Shown in pieces: positions 1 to 7,280 of a stretch of 7,280 nt of DNA. The notes below the pieces were generated by a model that was not told the DNA's origin, searched no databases, and saw only the letters and a list, made by a program, of their open reading frames with translations. Numbering within the stretch: position 1 is the first letter of the stretch; the number at the start of each line of letters is the position of its first letter. The translations under genes were made by a program, and so were the position numbers. Source of the DNA: a virus (lineage: Duplodnaviria > Heunggongvirae > Uroviricota > Caudoviricetes); IMG/VR virus record IMGVR_UViG_2700989509_000014; one strand, given 5' to 3'.

Positions 1-839
1 TTCATGGCTATGTCATGACTGACGGCAAACTCCATGCCGATGATACCCCGGTCCAGGTACTGCTGCCGGGTAATAAGAAGACGAAGACCGGGCGGTTGTG
101 GGCGTATGTTCGTGATGACCGCAATGCCGGGTCAGCGTTGGCACCTGCAGTGTGGTTCGCTTACAGCCCGGACAGGAAAGGCATCCATCCGCAGACTCAT
201 CTTGCCTGCTTCAGCGGTGTGCTGCAAGCGGATGCGTACGCCGGGTTCAACGAGCTGTATCGCAATGGTCGGATAACGGAAGCTGCCTGCTGGGCTCATG
301 CCCGCCGAAAGATCCACGATGTGCACGTCCGCATCCCGTCAGCACTGACGGAAGAAGCCCTGGAGCAGATCGGTCAGTTGTACGCCATAGAGGCGGATAT
401 AAGGGGAATGCCGGCAGAGCAGCGGCTTGCTGAACGTCAGCGAAAAACGAAACCGCTGTTGAAATCCCTGGAAAGCTGGTTGCGTGAAAAGATGAAGACC
501 CTGTCGCGACACTCAGAGTTGGCGAAGGCGTTCGCGTACGCACTTAACCAGTGGCCGGCACTGACGTACTATGCGAACGATGGCTGGGTGGAAATCGACA
601 ACAACATCGCTGAAAATGCCCTGCGGGCGGTCAGTCTGGGTCGTAAAAACTTCCTGTTCTTCGGCTCTGACCATGGTGGTGAGCGGGGAGCGCTACTGTA
701 CAGCCTGATCGGGACGTGCAAACTGAATGACGTGGATCCAGAAAGTTACCTTCGCCATGTGCTTGGCGTCATAGCAGACTGGCCGGTCAACCGGGTCAGC
801 GAACTGCTTCCGTGGCGCATAGCACTGCCAGCTGAATAA
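1..839 (+). CDS. IS66-family transposase (TnpC-type), C-terminal ~279 aa; 5' end truncated by the window edge (reading frame enters at position 3)
   Basis: Open frame from position 3 with no upstream stop inside the window; the ORF-track translation (…[11 protein letters not shown]…[10 protein letters not shown]…[10 protein letters not shown]…) is what I recognise as the conserved C-terminal region of IS66 transposases. The internal ATG at 15 is unlikely to be the true start. Confidence 0.8.
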
Positions 840-876
840 CACATCCCCGTCAATACGGCCCTCGCTGTACGCTTAC
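1..876 (+). mobile_element. Right-hand end of an IS66-family insertion sequence (partial; element continues upstream of the window). The proposed terminus at 873-876 (TTAC on the plus strand, GTAAGCG... on the minus strand) is tentative.
   Basis: The 1-839 ORF encodes the C-terminal part of an IS66-family transposase. About 25 bp past its stop, the minus strand reads GTAAGCGTACAGCGAGG (reverse complement of 860-876); IS66-family terminal inverted repeats are described as beginning 5'-GTAA. GC-rich (about 57% in a sampled 60-mer) compared with the adjacent cassette. Exact boundary is uncertain because a second copy of the end motif lies at 1040-1055. Confidence 0.6.
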
Positions 877-879
877 GGA
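864..879. repeat. 16-bp direct repeat gctgtacgcttacgga, copy 1 (IS66 end-like motif)
   Basis: Exact 16-mer, present again at 1040-1055. On the minus strand it contains GTAAGCGTACAGC. Confidence 0.7.
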
Positions 880-1039
880 GGCAGCAACGAGCTGCTGTTT
901 AAATTCGGGAGGATAATTAGGGCAGCCTTTTCGCCTGCCGGGAGTCACATTTTTCTGCATATCTGATACTTTGGTTCCCACTACTTATTTGGTGGACACC
1001 ACTTTGTCTAATTCGTCAGATTCTGACCAGACGGTTCAG

Positions 1040-1055
1040 GCTGTACGCTTACGGA
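1040..1055. repeat. 16-bp direct repeat gctgtacgcttacgga, copy 2 (possible solo IS66-type terminal repeat or remnant)
   Basis: Exact match to 864-879, 176 bp further right, in non-coding DNA between the IS and the prophage cassette. Confidence 0.6.
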
Positions 1056-1162
1056 TGAAGGTGATGGGGCAGGGATCAGAATTGCGTGGTGTAGCAAGTT
1101 GTATCTATCAATTTTCAATAAATACAATTGGTTATGTGTTTTTAGGTGGAGCGATCGTGAGG

Positions 1163-1189
1163 CAAAGAAAACCCGGCGCGGTGGCCGGG
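1163..1189 (-). terminator. Rho-independent terminator closing the minus-strand two-gene cassette
   Basis: On the minus strand: CCCGGC-caccgc-GCCGGG (6-bp GC stem, plus coordinates 1172-1189) followed directly by TTTTCTTT (plus 1164-1171). It starts about 15 nt after the stop codon of the 1205-2134 gene. There is no T-tract on the plus-strand side, so it is unidirectional. Confidence 0.65.
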
Positions 1190-1204
1190 CTGAAGGGGCT
1201 CATT

Positions 1205-2134
1205 CTAATCGATTGATTTAATATCCCATTGAGGTCGAGAAACCAGAGTGTATCTGGGCTTGCCCTTACCAACAGTTTTTTTCAGGAACGTGGCTGTTGC
1301 AACGCTTCCTAAGTGCTTGTTTATAATATCTGGGTCATCTACAGCTTTGTCAATGCTAGCGGTTCTGATATCAGTGTTACCTAAAACTATAAATTCACAT
1401 TGGCGCTTGTTAGGAAGAGTTCCCAAAAATATAACGTTCTCAATAATTTTTTCCTGCTGAATGTTATCATTGCTGAGATGTTGATATACAGCTTCAAGCT
1501 GTTTTGGCTCTCTAAAAACGATGCTAAAACCTTGGCTTTTAAGTGTAAAAACTGTTTTATTTTCATGCAGATAATGAATGAATGCTCTGATTTTATCTAA
1601 GGCCCGAGAGTCTAAGTTTTCTATAGCATCAGACAATTCTTCATCATCATTATCCAAGCTTGCCTGAAATATTTTTCTGGCCTTATTAATAGCTTTTGCT
1701 ACTGGGGTTTCTTCATCGAATTCAAGAGGAGCATCAGGTCTAAACTCTTCAAGTACGAATCCGAAAGAACCACGGGCTGACGCGGTAATCATGAGATGAT
1801 TATTTTCTATGTTTGGTATCTTGCCTGATGCAGGAAGTGGGCCATTGAAAGAGGTTGCCAAGTAAGCTATTGCATCATTAAAACAAGATATAGCTTTTGT
1901 TCCAAATACTGCTGAAATGCCATGCGTGCCAACTACTGTTGGGCCTCTAAAAGTTAACACAGCATGCGTAGGTTCATGTTCTCGAACGTCAGCTTGTGAA
2001 ATTAATCGCTCAACTTTCTCCAGACGGTCTTCTAAGCTTTTTCGGCTAATAGAATGACTTGTTGGCATATTTTTTAATAGATTACTTATTTGCTCGCGCT
2101 CACTGAGAGCGAAAACATAATCATTACGATTCAT
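1205..2134 (-). CDS. Hypothetical protein, 309 aa; distal gene of a two-gene cassette downstream of cI; candidate defence/exclusion component, function unknown
   Basis: Long ORF with ATG at 2134 preceded by GAGGGGG 7 nt upstream on the minus strand. Its start overlaps the stop of the upstream gene by 4 bp (ATGA). AT-rich (about 33% GC in a sampled 60-mer). Ends just before an intrinsic terminator. No Walker motif, no obvious transmembrane segment, no family I can name. A weak R-x6-H string (RAFIHYLH) is noted but not relied on. Confidence 0.75.
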   Translation of the reverse strand: MNRNDYVFALSEREQISNLLKNMPTSHSISRKSLEDRLEKVERLISQADVREHEPTHAVLTFRGPTVVGTHGISAVFGTKAISCFNDAIAYLATSFNGPLPASGKIPNIENNHLMITASARGSFGFVLEEFRPDAPLEFDEETPVAKAINKARKIFQASLDNDDEELSDAIENLDSRALDKIRAFIHYLHENKTVFTLKSQGFSIVFREPKQLEAVYQHLSNDNIQQEKIIENVIFLGTLPNKRQCEFIVLGNTDIRTASIDKAVDDPDIINKHLGSVATATFLKKTVGKGKPRYTLVSRPQWDIKSID

Positions 2135-2709
2135 TGTTTGACCCCCTCAGTAGTAGCCGAATTAAGTATAGTCATTGCCACAACATCAAGTTGTGGGTTT
2201 AACGGGATTTGGATAAATCCCTTCCACGACAGATCGCGTCTATGTGCCCACATACTGTACCAGTATACAGTCATTTCAACAAGCTCATGACTTGGTAGAT
2301 TAAGTTCTTGGAAGTAGGAATCTACGAAAAACTCCTTCTTAACAAAATCATGATCAAATAGCTCTGGCTTTCTACCGATTACGATTGCATCATTATCGCC
2401 ATTACTGAATTGAAAAAAGGTCACAACATCGACATCATTCGGTGGCCTTTTTTCAATAAGTTCAATATGTTCTGTGAAGCTTCCATCTACCCACTGAAAA
2501 CCTTCAACTAGCCCTGCTTGAGTGAGTGAAACACGAAAGTTAAGAAAACCCTTAAGGATTTTAATCCTTGCAGGGCTAAGCGAAAAAGTACTAACAAAGC
2601 GTACTATATCCATTTTGTATGGGGAACGAGTATGGCTTGTAGGATCAGCCTCGTCTATTGGGGGGATTAACCCCATCTCATTCCATAGAGAGACAGTTGG
2701 TATACTCAA
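2131..2709 (-). CDS. Hypothetical protein, ~192 aa (TTG start at 2709; alternative ATG at 2676 gives 181 aa); proximal gene of the cassette; possible nucleotidyltransferase-like fold, tentative
   Basis: ORF with TTG start preceded by AAGGT 5 nt upstream on the minus strand; the internal in-frame ATG at 2676 has a weaker GGAA signal. Contains W-V-D-G-S-F, then 15 residues, then D-V-D-V-V, which resembles the hG[GS]…DhDh signature of Pol-beta-type (minimal) nucleotidyltransferases; this is pattern resemblance only. AT-rich. Lies 114 bp downstream of the cI stop on the same strand. Confidence 0.7.
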   Translation of the reverse strand: MSIPTVSLWNEMGLIPPIDEADPTSHTRSPYKMDIVRFVSTFSLSPARIKILKGFLNFRVSLTQAGLVEGFQWVDGSFTEHIELIEKRPPNDVDVVTFFQFSNGDNDAIVIGRKPELFDHDFVKKEFFVDSYFQELNLPSHELVEMTVYWYSMWAHRRDLSWKGFIQIPLNPQLDVVAMTILNSATTEGVKQ

Positions 2710-2823
2710 TGCTTAACCTTTATAACGAACTGAATATTCGGCAAAATATTGTTTTTAGGTATTGGCTGCTGTGCTTGTCGGACGGTTATTTCGTGTCACC
2801 CAAACGTTTCTTCTGGCCACTGG

Positions 2824-3531
2824 TTACCAGCTATGTGATGACCAGAATACTCTGCCAATAATCCTTACTGTTTCATGAAACTCATCTCTATCCATTACTT
2901 CATCAGGGTACTCTTCGCGATTTATTGATCTGATTATCACGGATGTAGGTGTGGCTATTAATGTCTTTACTCTTAGTAAATCAGATTGACAAATAGCGTA
3001 GGTTTTACCATCTCTGATGGTGGTGTCTTGCGTGTTGACTCCAACAACATCACCATCGTGAAGGGTTGGCTCCATGCTTTGGCCTATCACCCTAACCAGC
3101 TTGGCAGAGCTTTCAGATACCCCCATCTTTTTCAGATAGTACTTTCTGAAAACCAAAGAGAACTCAGATGATTCCTCTAACTCACAGCTACCACTCCCGG
3201 CGGAAAGAGAAACATTAAGAAGAGGCAATGCGACAAACTCGTCATCGTTTCTTTTTATGTCCTCCCATACCACCGCTTTTAAAGATGACTCACGCACATT
3301 CGATGGCTCTTCATGTGCACCATCCCTCATTTCACCAATACCTGAGCTAAGCCATTCAGGGCGTACTTTTAAAGCATTGGCTAACTCAACCATCTTTCGA
3401 GATCCGTTTGTTTTACCGGATGACATCTTCTGTATGGCTGGCTGAGATATTCCAACCATGTCAGCAAGCTGTGATTGTGACACCCCTGCTGAGCTCATGG
3501 CTGCATTTAGTCTTTCTGCGAATGTTTTCAT
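2824..3531 (-). CDS. cI: Phage CI-like repressor (N-terminal HTH, C-terminal S24/LexA-type autopeptidase), 235 aa from ATG 3531
   Basis: HTH segment SQSQLADMVGISQPAIQKM. Ala-Gly candidate autocleavage site (LSAGSG). Ser nucleophile in GQSMEP and a downstream Lys (LLRVKTL), as in LexA/CI S24 peptidases. Divergent from a cro-like gene across an operator region. The ORF track starts at a TTG (3561), but that extension would overlap operator site 1; the ATG at 3529-3531 (MKTFAERLN…) is the more likely start. Confidence 0.85.
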   Translation of the reverse strand: MKTFAERLNAAMSSAGVSQSQLADMVGISQPAIQKMSSGKTNGSRKMVELANALKVRPEWLSSGIGEMRDGAHEEPSNVRESSLKAVVWEDIKRNDDEFVALPLLNVSLSAGSGSCELEESSEFSLVFRKYYLKKMGVSESSAKLVRVIGQSMEPTLHDGDVVGVNTQDTTIRDGKTYAICQSDLLRVKTLIATPTSVIIRSINREEYPDEVMDRDEFHETVRIIGRVFWSSHSW

Positions 3532-3543
3532 ACCCACAAATCT

Positions 3544-3606
3544 ATAACTACGGTTATCCAAAGTAAAATAACAAAGGTTATTGCTATTTTTTATAACTTG
3601 AGTTAT
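3544..3606. promoter_or_regulatory. Tripartite operator (OR-like): three perfect ATAAC-N4-GTTAT palindromes between the divergent cI and cro genes; overlapping pRM/pR-type promoters inferred
   Basis: Exact sites ATAACtacgGTTAT (3544-3557), ATAACaaagGTTAT (3568-3581) and ATAACttgaGTTAT (3593-3606), spaced 24 and 25 bp start to start, like lambda OR3-OR2-OR1. Candidate rightward promoter TTGCTA (3581-3586), 17-bp spacer, TATCTT (3604-3609), or alternatively a -10 TATAAG at 3614-3619. Candidate leftward -10 is TATAGA on the minus strand (plus 3541-3546). Promoter hexamers are guesses; the palindromes are exact. Confidence 0.65.
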
Positions 3607-3642
3607 CTTTGGTTATAAGTAATGTCCACAAGAGGTATGCTC

Positions 3643-3867
3643 ATGAATTTAGTAATTCAACGAGCCTTGAAAATTGTCGGTAGCCAAAAGCGCCTTGCCG
3701 ACAAGTGTGGTGTAACGCAGCCAGCAGTACATAAATGGCTGAAAGGCGGGTTGGTCTCTCCAGAGAAAGTTACCGCCATCGTTAACGCCACAGGAGGGCA
3801 GATCAAGGCTTACGAAATCCGCCCAGATTTGCCACACCTGTTTCCAAAACCGAATCAGGCAGCATAA
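3643..3867 (+). CDS. cro: Cro-like small HTH regulator (YdaS/Cro family), 74 aa from ATG 3643
   Basis: First rightward gene opposite the repressor. HTH-like segment QKRLADKCGVTQPAVHKWLKG followed by AIVNATGG, which resembles YdaS/Cro-type proteins. AGAGG at 3631-3635 sits 7 nt before ATG 3643; the upstream in-frame ATGs at 3622 and 3637 lack a properly spaced RBS. Stop TAA at 3865-3867. Confidence 0.65.
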   Translation: MNLVIQRALKIVGSQKRLADKCGVTQPAVHKWLKGGLVSPEKVTAIVNATGGQIKAYEIRPDLPHLFPKPNQAA

Positions 3868-3874
3868 GTAACAC

Positions 3875-3909
3875 CGCTCTTTATCAATCTGCACCGCCGA
3901 CAACGCGGT
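3875..3909 (+). promoter_or_regulatory. nutR-like antitermination site: boxA-like CGCTCTTTATCAA followed by a boxB-like hairpin
   Basis: CGCTCTTTA (3875-3883) matches the boxA core (GCTCTTTA / CGCTCTTA). Ten nt downstream is the hairpin ACCGC-cgacaac-GCGGT (3893-3909), a 5-bp stem whose loop contains GACAA, which I recall as the P22-type boxB loop. It lies immediately 3' of cro and 5' of cII, where nutR sits in lambda and P22. Confidence 0.5.
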
Positions 3910-3973
3910 AACTAATTAAGCGCTCATCGAAAGATGGGTATTAGTGATTATTTACCTATGGAAATAGTAAGAA

Positions 3974-4273
3974 ATGGAACAAACAAGTTACAGCAAACTA
4001 TCACAGCGCGACGTTGATCGCGCAGAAACAGATTTACTCATCAACCTGTCAACGCTTACACAGCGCGGTCTGGCAAAGATGATTGGCTGTCATGAATCGA
4101 AGATAAGCAGAACGGACTGGAGATTTATTGCTTCGGTCTTGTGTGCTTTCGGAATGGCATCAGACATCAGTCCGATTAGCAGGGCTTTTAAGTATGCGCT
4201 TGATGGACTCACCAATAAAAAACGCCCGGTGTGCAAGACCGAGCGTTCTGATCAAATACAAATGGAATTTTAA
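3974..4273 (+). CDS. cII: CII-like transcriptional activator (lambda CII homolog), 99 aa
   Basis: C-terminus LTNKKRPVCKTERSDQIQMEF closely matches the lambda CII C-terminus (…ILTNKKRPAATERSEQIQMEF); a central HTH-like segment is present; position after cro/nutR is canonical. Stop TAA at 4271-4273. Confidence 0.8.
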   Translation: MEQTSYSKLSQRDVDRAETDLLINLSTLTQRGLAKMIGCHESKISRTDWRFIASVLCAFGMASDISPISRAFKYALDGLTNKKRPVCKTERSDQIQMEF

Positions 4274-4295
4274 CAACATCCAACGAGGTAATTAT

Positions 4296-4568
4296 ATGCG
4301 AAACAAAGGCTTTAATCCACCTGATACACACAAAGAAGCTAAGCGTTTGCGCTTCCTTCGTTCCATTGATGAAAGAACTCAAATCTCTTTTGTGAAAGTT
4401 GCCAGAACTGAGCTTCTGAAGGCTGAGGCGAGGGCGTTGCTCCCGTCTCTACCAAAAGAGGAGGGATATACGTCCATTCCAAACGCATTTCTGGAAAAGC
4501 TGCTCAAAGAAGACATATCCGTAAGTCAGTTTAACGATGTTCTTAAGGTCTTTCGTCAAGGCAGGTAG
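4296..4568 (+). CDS. Small hypothetical protein (90 aa) between cII and the O-like gene
   Basis: ATG at 4296 preceded by GAGG (4285-4288) with a 7-nt spacer; ends with TAG at 4566-4568, 2 nt before the O-like start. The ORF-track entry 4128-4568 is the same frame extended upstream across cII and is not the real N-terminus. Basic and charged, no recognisable motif. Confidence 0.55.
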   Translation: MRNKGFNPPDTHKEAKRLRFLRSIDERTQISFVKVARTELLKAEARALLPSLPKEEGYTSIPNAFLEKLLKEDISVSQFNDVLKVFRQGR

Positions 4569-4570
4569 TT

Positions 4571-5518
4571 ATGAGCAATACAGCAAAAATCTACGATTTC
4601 AGCGCCGCACACGAGCGCAGGAGCAACAGGATGGAGAACCAGAAAACTGGTTACATTCCGTTGTACCGGAGCATTCTGAAACAGTCATGGGCGAAAGATG
4701 TTTATCTTCGCACCCTGTGGGAAAACCTTCTCCTGAATGCCGCCAGAAAGCCATACAAAGCGAATTTCAAAGGTCATGAATGGCATCTGCAACCCGGTCA
4801 ACTGGTTGTGACAGCAGCTGATTTAGGTCTTCAGTTATGCGACAGGCATGGCAAGCCAGCAAGCCGCGATCAGGTTGAGCGGATGCTTCAGGTTTTTGTG
4901 AAAGAGGGGGTGATCACCATTGATGGAGAGAAGCAAAAAGGTCGTGTGATTACCATCACAAATTACCATGAATATGCTCAAAAAATGGACGATTCACCCG
5001 CACATGAAGCCGCACAAACAACCGCACATGATGCCGCACATGACGAAGCCAGCAATGGCGCGGCTTTCAGAGTACATGCCGCACATGAAAGCGCACATGA
5101 AGCCGCACAAACAACCGCACATCATGAACAAGAAGGTATTAACAAGAATATAAATAATACCCCCCTACCCCCCAATGGGGGAGGCGATGGGCAGGTTAAA
5201 CCTGAACGTCGCAAGGCAGAACGAATCGACTACGAATCCTTCCTGAACGCCTACAACACCGAAGTCGGTGGCAGACTTCCACACGCTGTTGCGGTCAACG
5301 AGAAACGCAAACGCCGCCTGAAGAAAATCATCCCGCAACTGAAAACGCCAAACGTGGACGGTTTCAGAGCGTATGTCAGGGCGTTTGTACATCAGGCCAA
5401 GCCGTTTTACTTCGGAGACAACGACACGGGCTGGACGGCTGATTTTGATTACCTGCTGAGGGAAGACTCGTTAACGGGAGTTCGGGAAGGGAAGTTTGCA
5501 GACAGGGGGATTGCATGA
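4571..5518 (+). CDS. Replication initiation protein, lambda O-like N-terminus with a conserved phage replication-protein C-terminal region, 315 aa; carries the origin iterons internally
   Basis: N-terminus [11 protein letters not shown]… parallels lambda O (MTNTAKILNFG…). A His/Ala-rich linker is encoded by the iteron repeats. Directly followed by, and overlapping by 4 bp with, a DnaB-family helicase gene (P22 gene 18 / gene 12-type arrangement). Confidence 0.75.
4998..5181. repeat. Putative phage origin of replication: iteron array, AT-rich tract and C/G palindrome inside the O-like gene
   Basis: A 31-bp perfect direct repeat cgcacatgaagccgcacaaacaaccgcacat at 4999-5029 and 5092-5122. At least eight copies of the 10-mer (c/g)cgcacat(g/c)a between 4998 and 5123. 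Then an AT-rich stretch (5125-5159, …aacaagaatataaataata…), then C6-TA-C6-AAT-G5 (5160-5181). The organisation mirrors ori-lambda, which also lies inside O. Confidence 0.6.
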
Positions 5519-6891
5519 AACAGGATATCGAAGCGAGCGTTATCGGTGGCCTGCTGATTGGTGGATTAACACCAACTGCCAGTGACGTTCTGGCAACGCT
5601 GGAGCCGGAAGCGTTTTCAATTCCGCTCTACCGGAAAGCCTTCGAGGTTATCCGCAAGCAGGCGCGAAACAGAAACCTAATCGACGCGCTGATGGTTGCC
5701 GAGGCGTGCGGAGAGGAGCATTTCACGTCAATCCTGATGACCAGTAAGAACTGCCCGAGTGCCGCAAACCTGAAGGGATATGCCGGAATGGTCGCGGATA
5801 ACTATCACCGCCGCCTGGTGCTGGAAATCATGGATGAAATGCGTGAACCAATTCAGAGAGGAACCATCGATACATCGAGTCAGGCGATGGACGAGCTTGT
5901 AAAGCGTCTTTCAGCCATCAGAAAGCCCCGTGACGAGGTTAAACCTGTACGGTTAGGGGAAATCATCACTGACTACACTGACACGCTTGACAGGCGCCTG
6001 AGGAACGGAGAAGAGTCAGATACCCTGAAGACCGGAATCGAAGAACTTGATGTCATCACCGGAGGGATGAACGCGGAAGACCTGGTGATTATCGCCGCTC
6101 GTCCTGGTATGGGGAAAACCGAACTGGCGCTGAAGATTGCCGAAGGTGTGGCAAGCCGCGTTATTCCTGGTTCTGACGTCCGGCGCGGGGTATTGATTTT
6201 CTCAATGGAAATGAGCGCATTGCAGATTGCAGAGCGAAGCATTGCCAACGCCGGGAGGATGTCGGTTAGCGTGCTGCGAAATCCTGCATCGATGGATGAC
6301 GAAGGCTGGGCGCGTGTTGCTAACGGCATGAGTCAGCTTGCAGATTTGGATGTATGGGTAGTCGATGCCTCGCGGTTATCGGTCGAAGAAATACGCTCAA
6401 TCGCAGAACGGCACAAACAGGAAAATCCAAACCTGTCACTCATCATGGCGGATTATCTTGGCCTGATTGAGAAGCCGAAAGCAGACCGCAACGACCTCGC
6501 AATTGCTCACATCTCCGGAAGCCTGAAGGCGATGGCGAAAGACCTGAAAACGCCTGTTATCTCCCTGAGTCAGCTTTCGCGCGATGTTGAGAAGCGACCA
6601 AACAAACGCCCGACAAACGCAGATTTGCGTGATTCAGGAAGCATTGAGCAGGACGCAGACTCAATCATCATGCTCTATCGGGAAGCGGTATATGACGAGA
6701 ACAGTAGCGCCGCACCATTTGCTGAAATCATTGTGACAAAAAACCGTTTTGGCTCGCTTGGTACGGTTTACCAGCGGTTCTGCAACGGACACTTTGTTGC
6801 ATGTGACCAGGATGAAGCCAGAAAGATTTGCACAGCATCAAATGCACCCGCTGCACGTGGCAGACGATATGCACAAGGGGCTGACGTATGA
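5515..6891 (+). CDS. Replicative DNA helicase, DnaB family (phage-encoded), 458 aa
   Basis: Walker A in [11 protein letters not shown], Walker B-like [10 protein letters not shown], and DnaB C-terminal motifs ([40 protein letters not shown]). DnaB-like N-terminal domain (…[11 protein letters not shown]…). ATG 5515 overlaps the O-like stop (ATGA). Confidence 0.9.
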
Positions 6892-7157
6892 ATAAAAAAC
6901 AATTAGCCATTCTCGAAAAGGCATGGGATGCACAAATATCATGCGCTTTGAAAGAACAGGCACTACCAATAATCCAGACCAAATCGAAAATAGCCAGGCA
7001 GTTATGCGATGACGGATTCCTGAACGAGGTTGAGATTACGCGCCAGATGGTAACGTTCAAAGGGTATGAGATAAATCATCATGGTATAGCGGCGTATTGC
7101 TCCCATCTTCCTGATGACGTTGACATTGATGAAATGGAAAGGGAGATGAAGCAATGA
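6888..7157 (+). CDS. Small hypothetical phage protein (89 aa), translationally coupled to the helicase
   Basis: ATG 6888 overlaps the helicase stop (ATGA); AAGGGG lies 7 nt upstream; acidic C-terminus; no recognisable motif. Confidence 0.55.
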
Positions 7158-7182
7158 CCATCTACATCACTGAGCTAATAAC

Positions 7183-7214
7183 AGGCCTGCAGGTAATCGC
7201 AGGCCTTTTTATTT
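7183..7214 (+). terminator. Rho-independent terminator after the replication operon (tR2-like position)
   Basis: AGGCCTGC (7183-7190), loop aggtaatc, GCAGGCCT (7199-7206), an 8-bp stem, followed by TTTTTATTT (7206-7214); it begins 26 nt after the stop of the 6888-7157 ORF. Confidence 0.7.
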
Positions 7215-7280
7215 GGGGGAGAGGGAAGTGAACGATAGCTACCGACAGTTTGAAAACTGGTGGTCAAAAGACAGAGGCGC

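Follow-up and report, generated by a model that had tools for sequence, protein, structure and literature searches.

A duplicated 16-mer in a lambda-like Escherichia coli prophage very probably marks two nested, inverted copies of ISEc8

Insertion sequences of the IS66 family, such as IS66 and IS679, carry the genes tnpA, tnpB and tnpC in this order, have termini that start with GTAAGCG and generate 8-bp duplications of their target sites. These features were reportedly described by Han et al. in 2001 and by Gourbeyre et al. in 2010. One member of the family, ISEc8, was originally reported from E. coli O157:H7. The tnpABC organization and rearrangements mediated by IS66 are covered in PMC6778807. 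The DNA analyzed here, which we refer to as the window, is a stretch of 7,280 nt that, as a search with the DnaB-like protein it encodes showed, makes up the whole of the draft contig JZEB01000030.1 (GCA_000965715.1). When complete E. coli genomes were searched by BLAST, the left portion of the window matched an IS66-family element that is present in 4,322 of the 5,426 genomes and is labeled “IS66-like element ISEc8 family transposase” in RefSeq. We take this element to be ISEc8 (IS66 family, 2442 bp), a name taken from the RefSeq annotation and from ISfinder.

As a reference we used a 2442-bp copy of ISEc8 (nt 1435–3876 of locus L001), which starts with GTAAGCGTACAGCCTGAACC, ends with GGCCCTCGCTGTACGCTTAC and encodes tnpA (381 nt), tnpB (348 nt) and tnpC (1539 nt) in this order. 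The ends of the element, GTAAGCG...CGCTTAC, were defined from copies with 8-bp duplications. When the left inverted repeat (IRL, GTAAGCGTACAGCCTGAACC...) is compared with the right inverted repeat (IRR) in reverse complement (GTAAGCGTACAGCGAGGGCC...), the two agree at 13 of 13 positions at the tip, GTAAGCGTACAGC, and at 22 of 30 positions overall. Across the 45 distinct flanks surveyed, the right end of ISEc8 was always ...CGCTTAC, and the 8-bp duplication begins right after it wherever the left end could be read in the same locus. Besides copy B, described below, eleven ISEc8 copies have such duplications.

The window contains segments of two ISEc8 copies, a tnpC-bearing copy A and, adjacent to it and inverted, a left-end fragment of a copy B (Table 1). 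Their identity and orientation are observed directly. Both segments are nearly identical to the reference, share the terminal tip and display the imperfect terminal inverted repeats with 5′-GTAAGCG that are characteristic of the family, and copy B has an 8-bp target duplication. The predicted protein of copy A is an IS66-type DDE transposase, with matches at window positions 15–839 to PF03050 DDE_Tnp_IS66 (E 4.5e-81) and PF13817 DDE_Tnp_IS66_C (E 5e-17). All testable defining features of ISEc8 and of the IS66 family are found in the window, and ISEc8, with its tnpA-tnpB-tnpC organization, GTAAGCG termini and 8-bp duplications, shows no relevant difference from the family. The tnpA and tnpB genes of copy A lie beyond the start of the contig. 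The element itself does not differ from ISEc8, whereas the insertion site and the nesting position at nt 169–176 of copy B are specific to this lineage.

Table 1. Features of the ISEc8 block in the window, and the positions of nested or one-sided ISEc8 junctions in other genomes and plasmids.
Feature	Position	Strand	Remarks
3′ portion of ISEc8 copy A (IS nt 1567–2442)	1–876	+	99.3% identity, 6 mismatches to the reference
TnpC transposase, C-terminal 278 codons of copy A	1–839	+	Pfam
IRR of copy A	847–876	+	13-bp tip 864–876 lies in the first 16-mer copy
Truncated chimeric tnpA′ frame	850–960	-	MQKNVTPGRRKGCPNYPPEFKQQLVAAS/VSVQRGPY; 28 native codons, 8 codons from the IRR of copy A, stop
ISEc8 copy B, left-end fragment (IS nt 1–176)	877–1052	-	100% identity to the reverse complement
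GGAGGCAG, predicted 8-bp target duplication of copy A	877–884	+	Reverse complement of copy B nt 169–176
IRL of copy B	1023–1052	-	13-bp tip 1040–1052 lies in the second 16-mer copy
GGATGAAG, prophage target (8 bp) duplicated by copy B	1053–1060	+	Sister contig L052
Nested ISEc8, 8-bp duplication	B nt 255–262		L067
Nested ISEc8, 8-bp duplication	B nt 303–310		L070
Nested ISEc8, 8-bp duplication	B nt 822–829		L002
Nested ISEc8, 8-bp duplication	B nt 998–1005		L068
One-sided, IRR adjoins inverted ISEc8	nt 1–237		L065; no upstream partner, no target duplication
One-sided, IRR adjoins inverted ISEc8	nt 1–297		L001; no upstream partner, no target duplication
One-sided, IRR adjoins inverted ISEc8	nt 1–328		L066/L069; no upstream partner, no target duplication

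The 16-mer GCTGTACGCTTACGGA occurs exactly twice in the window, at 864–879 and 1040–1055 on the plus strand with a start-to-start distance of 176 bp, and no third match was found in the window when up to three mismatches were allowed. By chance, 0.03 matches would be expected, and two matches were seen in none of 200 dinucleotide-preserving shuffles; the duplication pointed out in the initial annotation is thus real. The similarity continues inward in a weaker form, with 80% identity over 30 nt between 855–884 and 1031–1060 according to a repeat finder, which is consistent with the imperfect IRL and IRR of one IS. Both copies of the 16-mer had been interpreted as the right terminus of an IS66 element. 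This interpretation applies to the left one, which contains the tip of the ISEc8 IRR, whereas the right one contains the IRL of the inverted copy B. The two ends appear as a direct 13-bp repeat 176 bp apart because the tips of IRL and IRR are identical and one of the IS copies is flipped. The boundary of the IS, which had seemed ambiguous between 876 and 1052, is accordingly resolved: copy A stops at 876 and the IS block as a whole at 1052, from where the prophage DNA takes over.

The fragment of copy B contains the IRL, a leader of 92 nt and the initial 28 codons of tnpA, the ATG of which corresponds to IS nt 93 and to window position 960 on the minus strand. At the point where the intact TnpA goes on ...VAASCEPGISI..., the reading frame in the window diverges into the IRR of copy A, and the resulting chimeric tnpA′ is presumably non-functional. 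Homology to prophages begins directly after the IRL of copy B. The flank on the IRR side comes from the sister assembly only, in which a contig recovered in a scan of IMG/VR for IRR tips (L052) ends with ...TGTAAATGTTGAGGATGAAG/GTAAGCGTACAGCGAGG, or ...TTTTTGTAAATGTTGAGGATGAAG/GTAAGCGTACAGCGAGGGCC... around the junction, that is, with phage DNA, GGATGAAG and the outermost 127 nt of ISEc8 on the IRR side. The window reads IRL/GGATGAAGGTGATGGGG at the junction of copy B and the phage, and the two ends taken together therefore define an ISEc8 element in minus orientation that is flanked by a direct 8-bp repeat of GGATGAAG. We rebuilt the empty site from the two flanks and one 8-mer (300 nt), and this sequence yielded one contiguous match with a single GGATGAAG in uninterrupted prophages (STEC299, 93%; phage SH2026Stx1, 90%). 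The target duplication and the empty site are direct observations, and copy B is a normal insertion in a lambda-like prophage.

The insertion site of copy B has the OL/pL operator region on its N side and, on the other, a terminator-like hairpin (1170–1191), which terminates a transcription unit consisting of cI, a gene for a DUF6932 protein and a gene for a 309-aa protein. No phage ORF is cut by the insertion. Both sides of the immunity region carry operator-like ATAAC(N4-6)GTTAT palindromes: OR, at 3540–3625 of the window between cI and cro, and OL, which is found in L052 of the sister assembly at about 14,730–14,810, immediately to the left of the IS insertion. Roughly 25 bp separate the IS block, which is upstream of the presumed pL, from the closest palindrome of the OL type.

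Some other features of the prophage were also observed. The last two genes of the cI unit make up a cassette (1205–2709, minus strand) that occupies the “rex position” between cI and OL. The DUF6932 protein (192 aa) was matched by the PADLOC candidate PDC-M63A (E 2e-10), and no Pfam or PADLOC match was obtained for the 309-aa protein. This protein appears in identical form in 1,356 blocks of the collection. In the loci shown, which were retrieved via this protein and all represent uninterrupted prophages, its gene is situated directly after those for cI and DUF6932 in 10 of 10 cases, with an N-type gene just beyond in 9 of 10. The cassette may be a prophage defense or exclusion module. Elsewhere in the window, a 12-bp unit (CCGCACATGAAG/A) forms two arrays of about 3.8 copies each, at 4998–5043 and 5079–5122, inside a replication-initiator gene, where they encode repeated HEAAQTTAH-like peptide segments. 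These arrays resemble origin iterons that lie within an O-like gene. The version of the replication initiator encoded by the 315-aa ORF is absent from the protein collection.

The sister assembly GCA_000965555.1 contains a contig, JZEC01000031.1 (L014, identical to L031), that corresponds to positions 750–7278 of the window except for three bases at the end, and both junctions, 876/877 and 1052/1053, can be read directly in it as well as in the window. Neither junction was present as one contiguous piece in any of the 5,426 complete E. coli RefSeq genomes, and searches for 876/877 retrieved only the sister contig from IMG/VR and nothing from the JGI metagenomes. The two sides of 876/877 have only 3 nt in common (TCC/GGA), and intact ISEc8 runs ...GCCTCC/TGTGAACC at this point, unlike the window. 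Copy A differs from the reference by SNPs at window positions 128, 176, 270, 456, 671 and 746, and since the window begins 127 nt upstream of the first of these, this suggests that copy A differs from the other ISEc8 copies of the same genome too. The start of the window is exactly 127 nt upstream of this SNP, and in the sister contigs the sequence reaches exactly 127 nt into the IS before it stops; breaks at this distance are a typical signature of a k=127 assembly graph that breaks in a multicopy repeat.

We consider it very probable that the window contains a nested pair of ISEc8 copies, with A inverted within B, inside the lambda-like prophage. According to this hypothesis, copy B would have come before copy A, and would have entered the immunity region between the OL/pL operators and the terminator that closes the two-gene cassette following cI, whereby its 8-bp target GGATGAAG was duplicated. 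Copy A, a slightly divergent and tnpC-bearing variant, would then have inserted the opposite way into nt 169–176 of copy B, at codon 28/29 of its tnpA. The outcome would be the order seen in the window, with the IRR of A up to 876, the first 176 nt of B in inverted orientation, the IRL up to 1052, GGATGAAG and the phage. The rest of copy B (nt 169–2442) would be located directly upstream of copy A, outside the contig, and the left junction of copy A, where the second GGAGGCAG duplication would be found, lies beyond the left end of the contig. The insertion of copy A into copy B is thus inferred, as the left end of A falls beyond the contig and a search of IMG/VR and of the JGI metagenomes for the predicted reciprocal junction, ...GTTCACAGGAGGCAG/GTAAGCGTACAGCC..., gave no match. 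The model of A within B is supported by the precedent of nested ISEc8 copies in complete genomes and plasmids.

The identity of the two 16-mers extends beyond the ends of the IS by three nucleotides, GGA, which the initial annotation had correctly seen in both copies. In the left copy these are the first 3 nt of GGAGGCAG (877–879) and in the right copy the first 3 nt of GGATGAAG (1053–1055), the latter being prophage DNA. Since the duplications start directly after ...CGCTTAC, GGA is outside the IS in both cases and does not form part of the terminus. We collected 45 distinct ISEc8 right flanks from loci L001–L070 in genomes and viral contigs, 10 loci of which were contributed by a scan of species-representative genomes for IRR tips. 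The first position next to the IRR was a G in 24 of the 45 flanks, the second position a G in 20 and the third position an A or a T in 35, with GG in 12 and GGA in 5, including the window's own, as compared with 0.7 of 45 for GGA under a uniform expectation. Among the outward flanks of the IRL, GGA was found in 3 of 29, again including the window's own. The shared GGA is best read as a coincidence of two unrelated flanks, made less unlikely by the mild bias of ISEc8 targets toward GG(A/T). We searched the literature for an account of the target preference of ISEc8 or of a bias at its right end and found none.

Clean insertions of ISEc8 into an inverted ISEc8, with 8-bp duplications, were identified at four other positions in other genomes and plasmids (e.g., NZ_CP013025.1, NZ_AP042570.1, NZ_CP027589.1 and pEX262-1; Table 1). 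As in the window, a complete ISEc8 resides in an inverted ISEc8, whereas the inner targets are different and the inner target duplication can be seen in full, the window showing one of the two inner junctions. The partner fragment is kept to the edge of the fetched region in L067, L068 and L070, and L002 keeps 61 nt of it. In yet other genomes, the IRR adjoins the inverted left end of another copy on one side only. An intact nested pair in the strain studied here would form a 2.27-kb inverted repeat with a spacer of 184 bp. Structures of this type tend to be unstable in E. coli; the nested pair could be unstable too, which may explain the one-sided remnants in the other genomes.

Six of the eight nesting positions, the window included, fall within nt 169–328, in a sample obtained with a query that detects inverted left-end fragments near an IRR only. 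One could hypothesize from this that ISEc8 has a preference for the first ~330 bp of copies already present, which it would enter in the inverted orientation. If true, such preferential self-insertion could represent a self-limiting mechanism, or a source of IRL-IRL-bounded derivatives that can use 1052 as an alternative end. However, because the query finds that kind of case only, neither a bias in orientation nor a bias in position can be established, and we regard the preference as very doubtful.

We also considered the possibility that copy B is a truncated remnant, of which only the first 176 nt are left in the strain while the remainder has been lost or relocated, so that the junction between the IRR and nt 176 of B would be a scar. 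Recombination of copy A with another ISEc8, or an IS-mediated adjacent deletion, could produce such a remnant. Secondary loss is a live alternative here because one-sided derived forms, with neither a partner nor a target duplication, exist in L065, L001 and L066/L069, and the inverted repeat of the nested pair is in general of an instability-prone type. However, in the sister genome the N-side phage flank, which carries the matching 8-bp duplication, still runs into the IRR of an ISEc8, as predicted by an intact right part of B, and the partner fragment is retained in three of the four nested cases with target duplications; we therefore hold a remnant to be improbable. A simple inversion of B nt 177–2442 is excluded, as the N-side flank adjoins the IRR and not nt 177. 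A false joining of the right end of one ISEc8 to the left end of another via the repeat might also be suspected, given a draft contig of 7.3 kb that ends in a multicopy IS and breaks 127 nt into the repeats, as for a k=127 graph. Yet the 3 nt common to the two sides of 876/877 are far below a usable k-mer, and intact ISEc8 has a different continuation there, which makes a graph artefact very unlikely. The same junction is moreover contained in two separately deposited assemblies, and its geometry is that of the verified nested insertions in complete genomes, so that we attach almost no weight to an artefact.

The initial annotation had proposed a solo terminal repeat from an earlier IS66-family insertion, a terminus duplicated by aberrant transposition, or a small non-autonomous element. 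An earlier insertion of an IS66-family element did take place, but its trace is not a solo repeat, since another 146 nt of uninterrupted ISEc8 sequence, with the start of tnpA, adjoin the IRL. In favor of aberrant transposition or a small mobile derivative, or else of a 2.6-kb element made up of A and the 176-bp segment, bounded by two IRLs and ending at 1052, it can be argued that perfect inverted ends would result from the inverted IRL at 1052 together with the IRL of copy A, which is not within the window, and that the transposase presumably recognizes both types of end. Against this, only one side of the segment 877–1052 is an IS end, and the segment lacks a target duplication of its own, the partner of the GGATGAAG next to it being found across the entire IS block. 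The 876/877 junction is also absent from the complete E. coli genomes and the metagenomes and was seen in IMG/VR in the sister contig only, and there is thus no sign that the 176-bp piece ever moved alone or that its terminus arose by aberrant transposition; we find such a derivative scarcely credible. A MITE-like derivative was likewise rejected, since the two 13-mers are direct repeats that come from different IS copies and no duplication surrounds 877–1052. We therefore favor the hypothesis of a nested pair of ISEc8 copies.

The annotation of the locus can be settled on this basis, with the tnpC-bearing ISEc8 up to 876, a 176-bp fragment of a second copy at 877–1052 and the prophage from 1053. 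It also accounts for the stop of the contig inside the IS, since short reads cannot resolve nested, inverted copies of a multicopy IS. For the prophage, the outcome would be an IS block of about 4.9 kb placed upstream of pL in the immunity region, with the phage genes uncut. In E. coli genomes rich in insertion sequences, such nesting is common, and a finding of this kind is already known. We consider it a routine consequence of the proliferation of insertion sequences in Shiga-toxin-type E. coli genomes.
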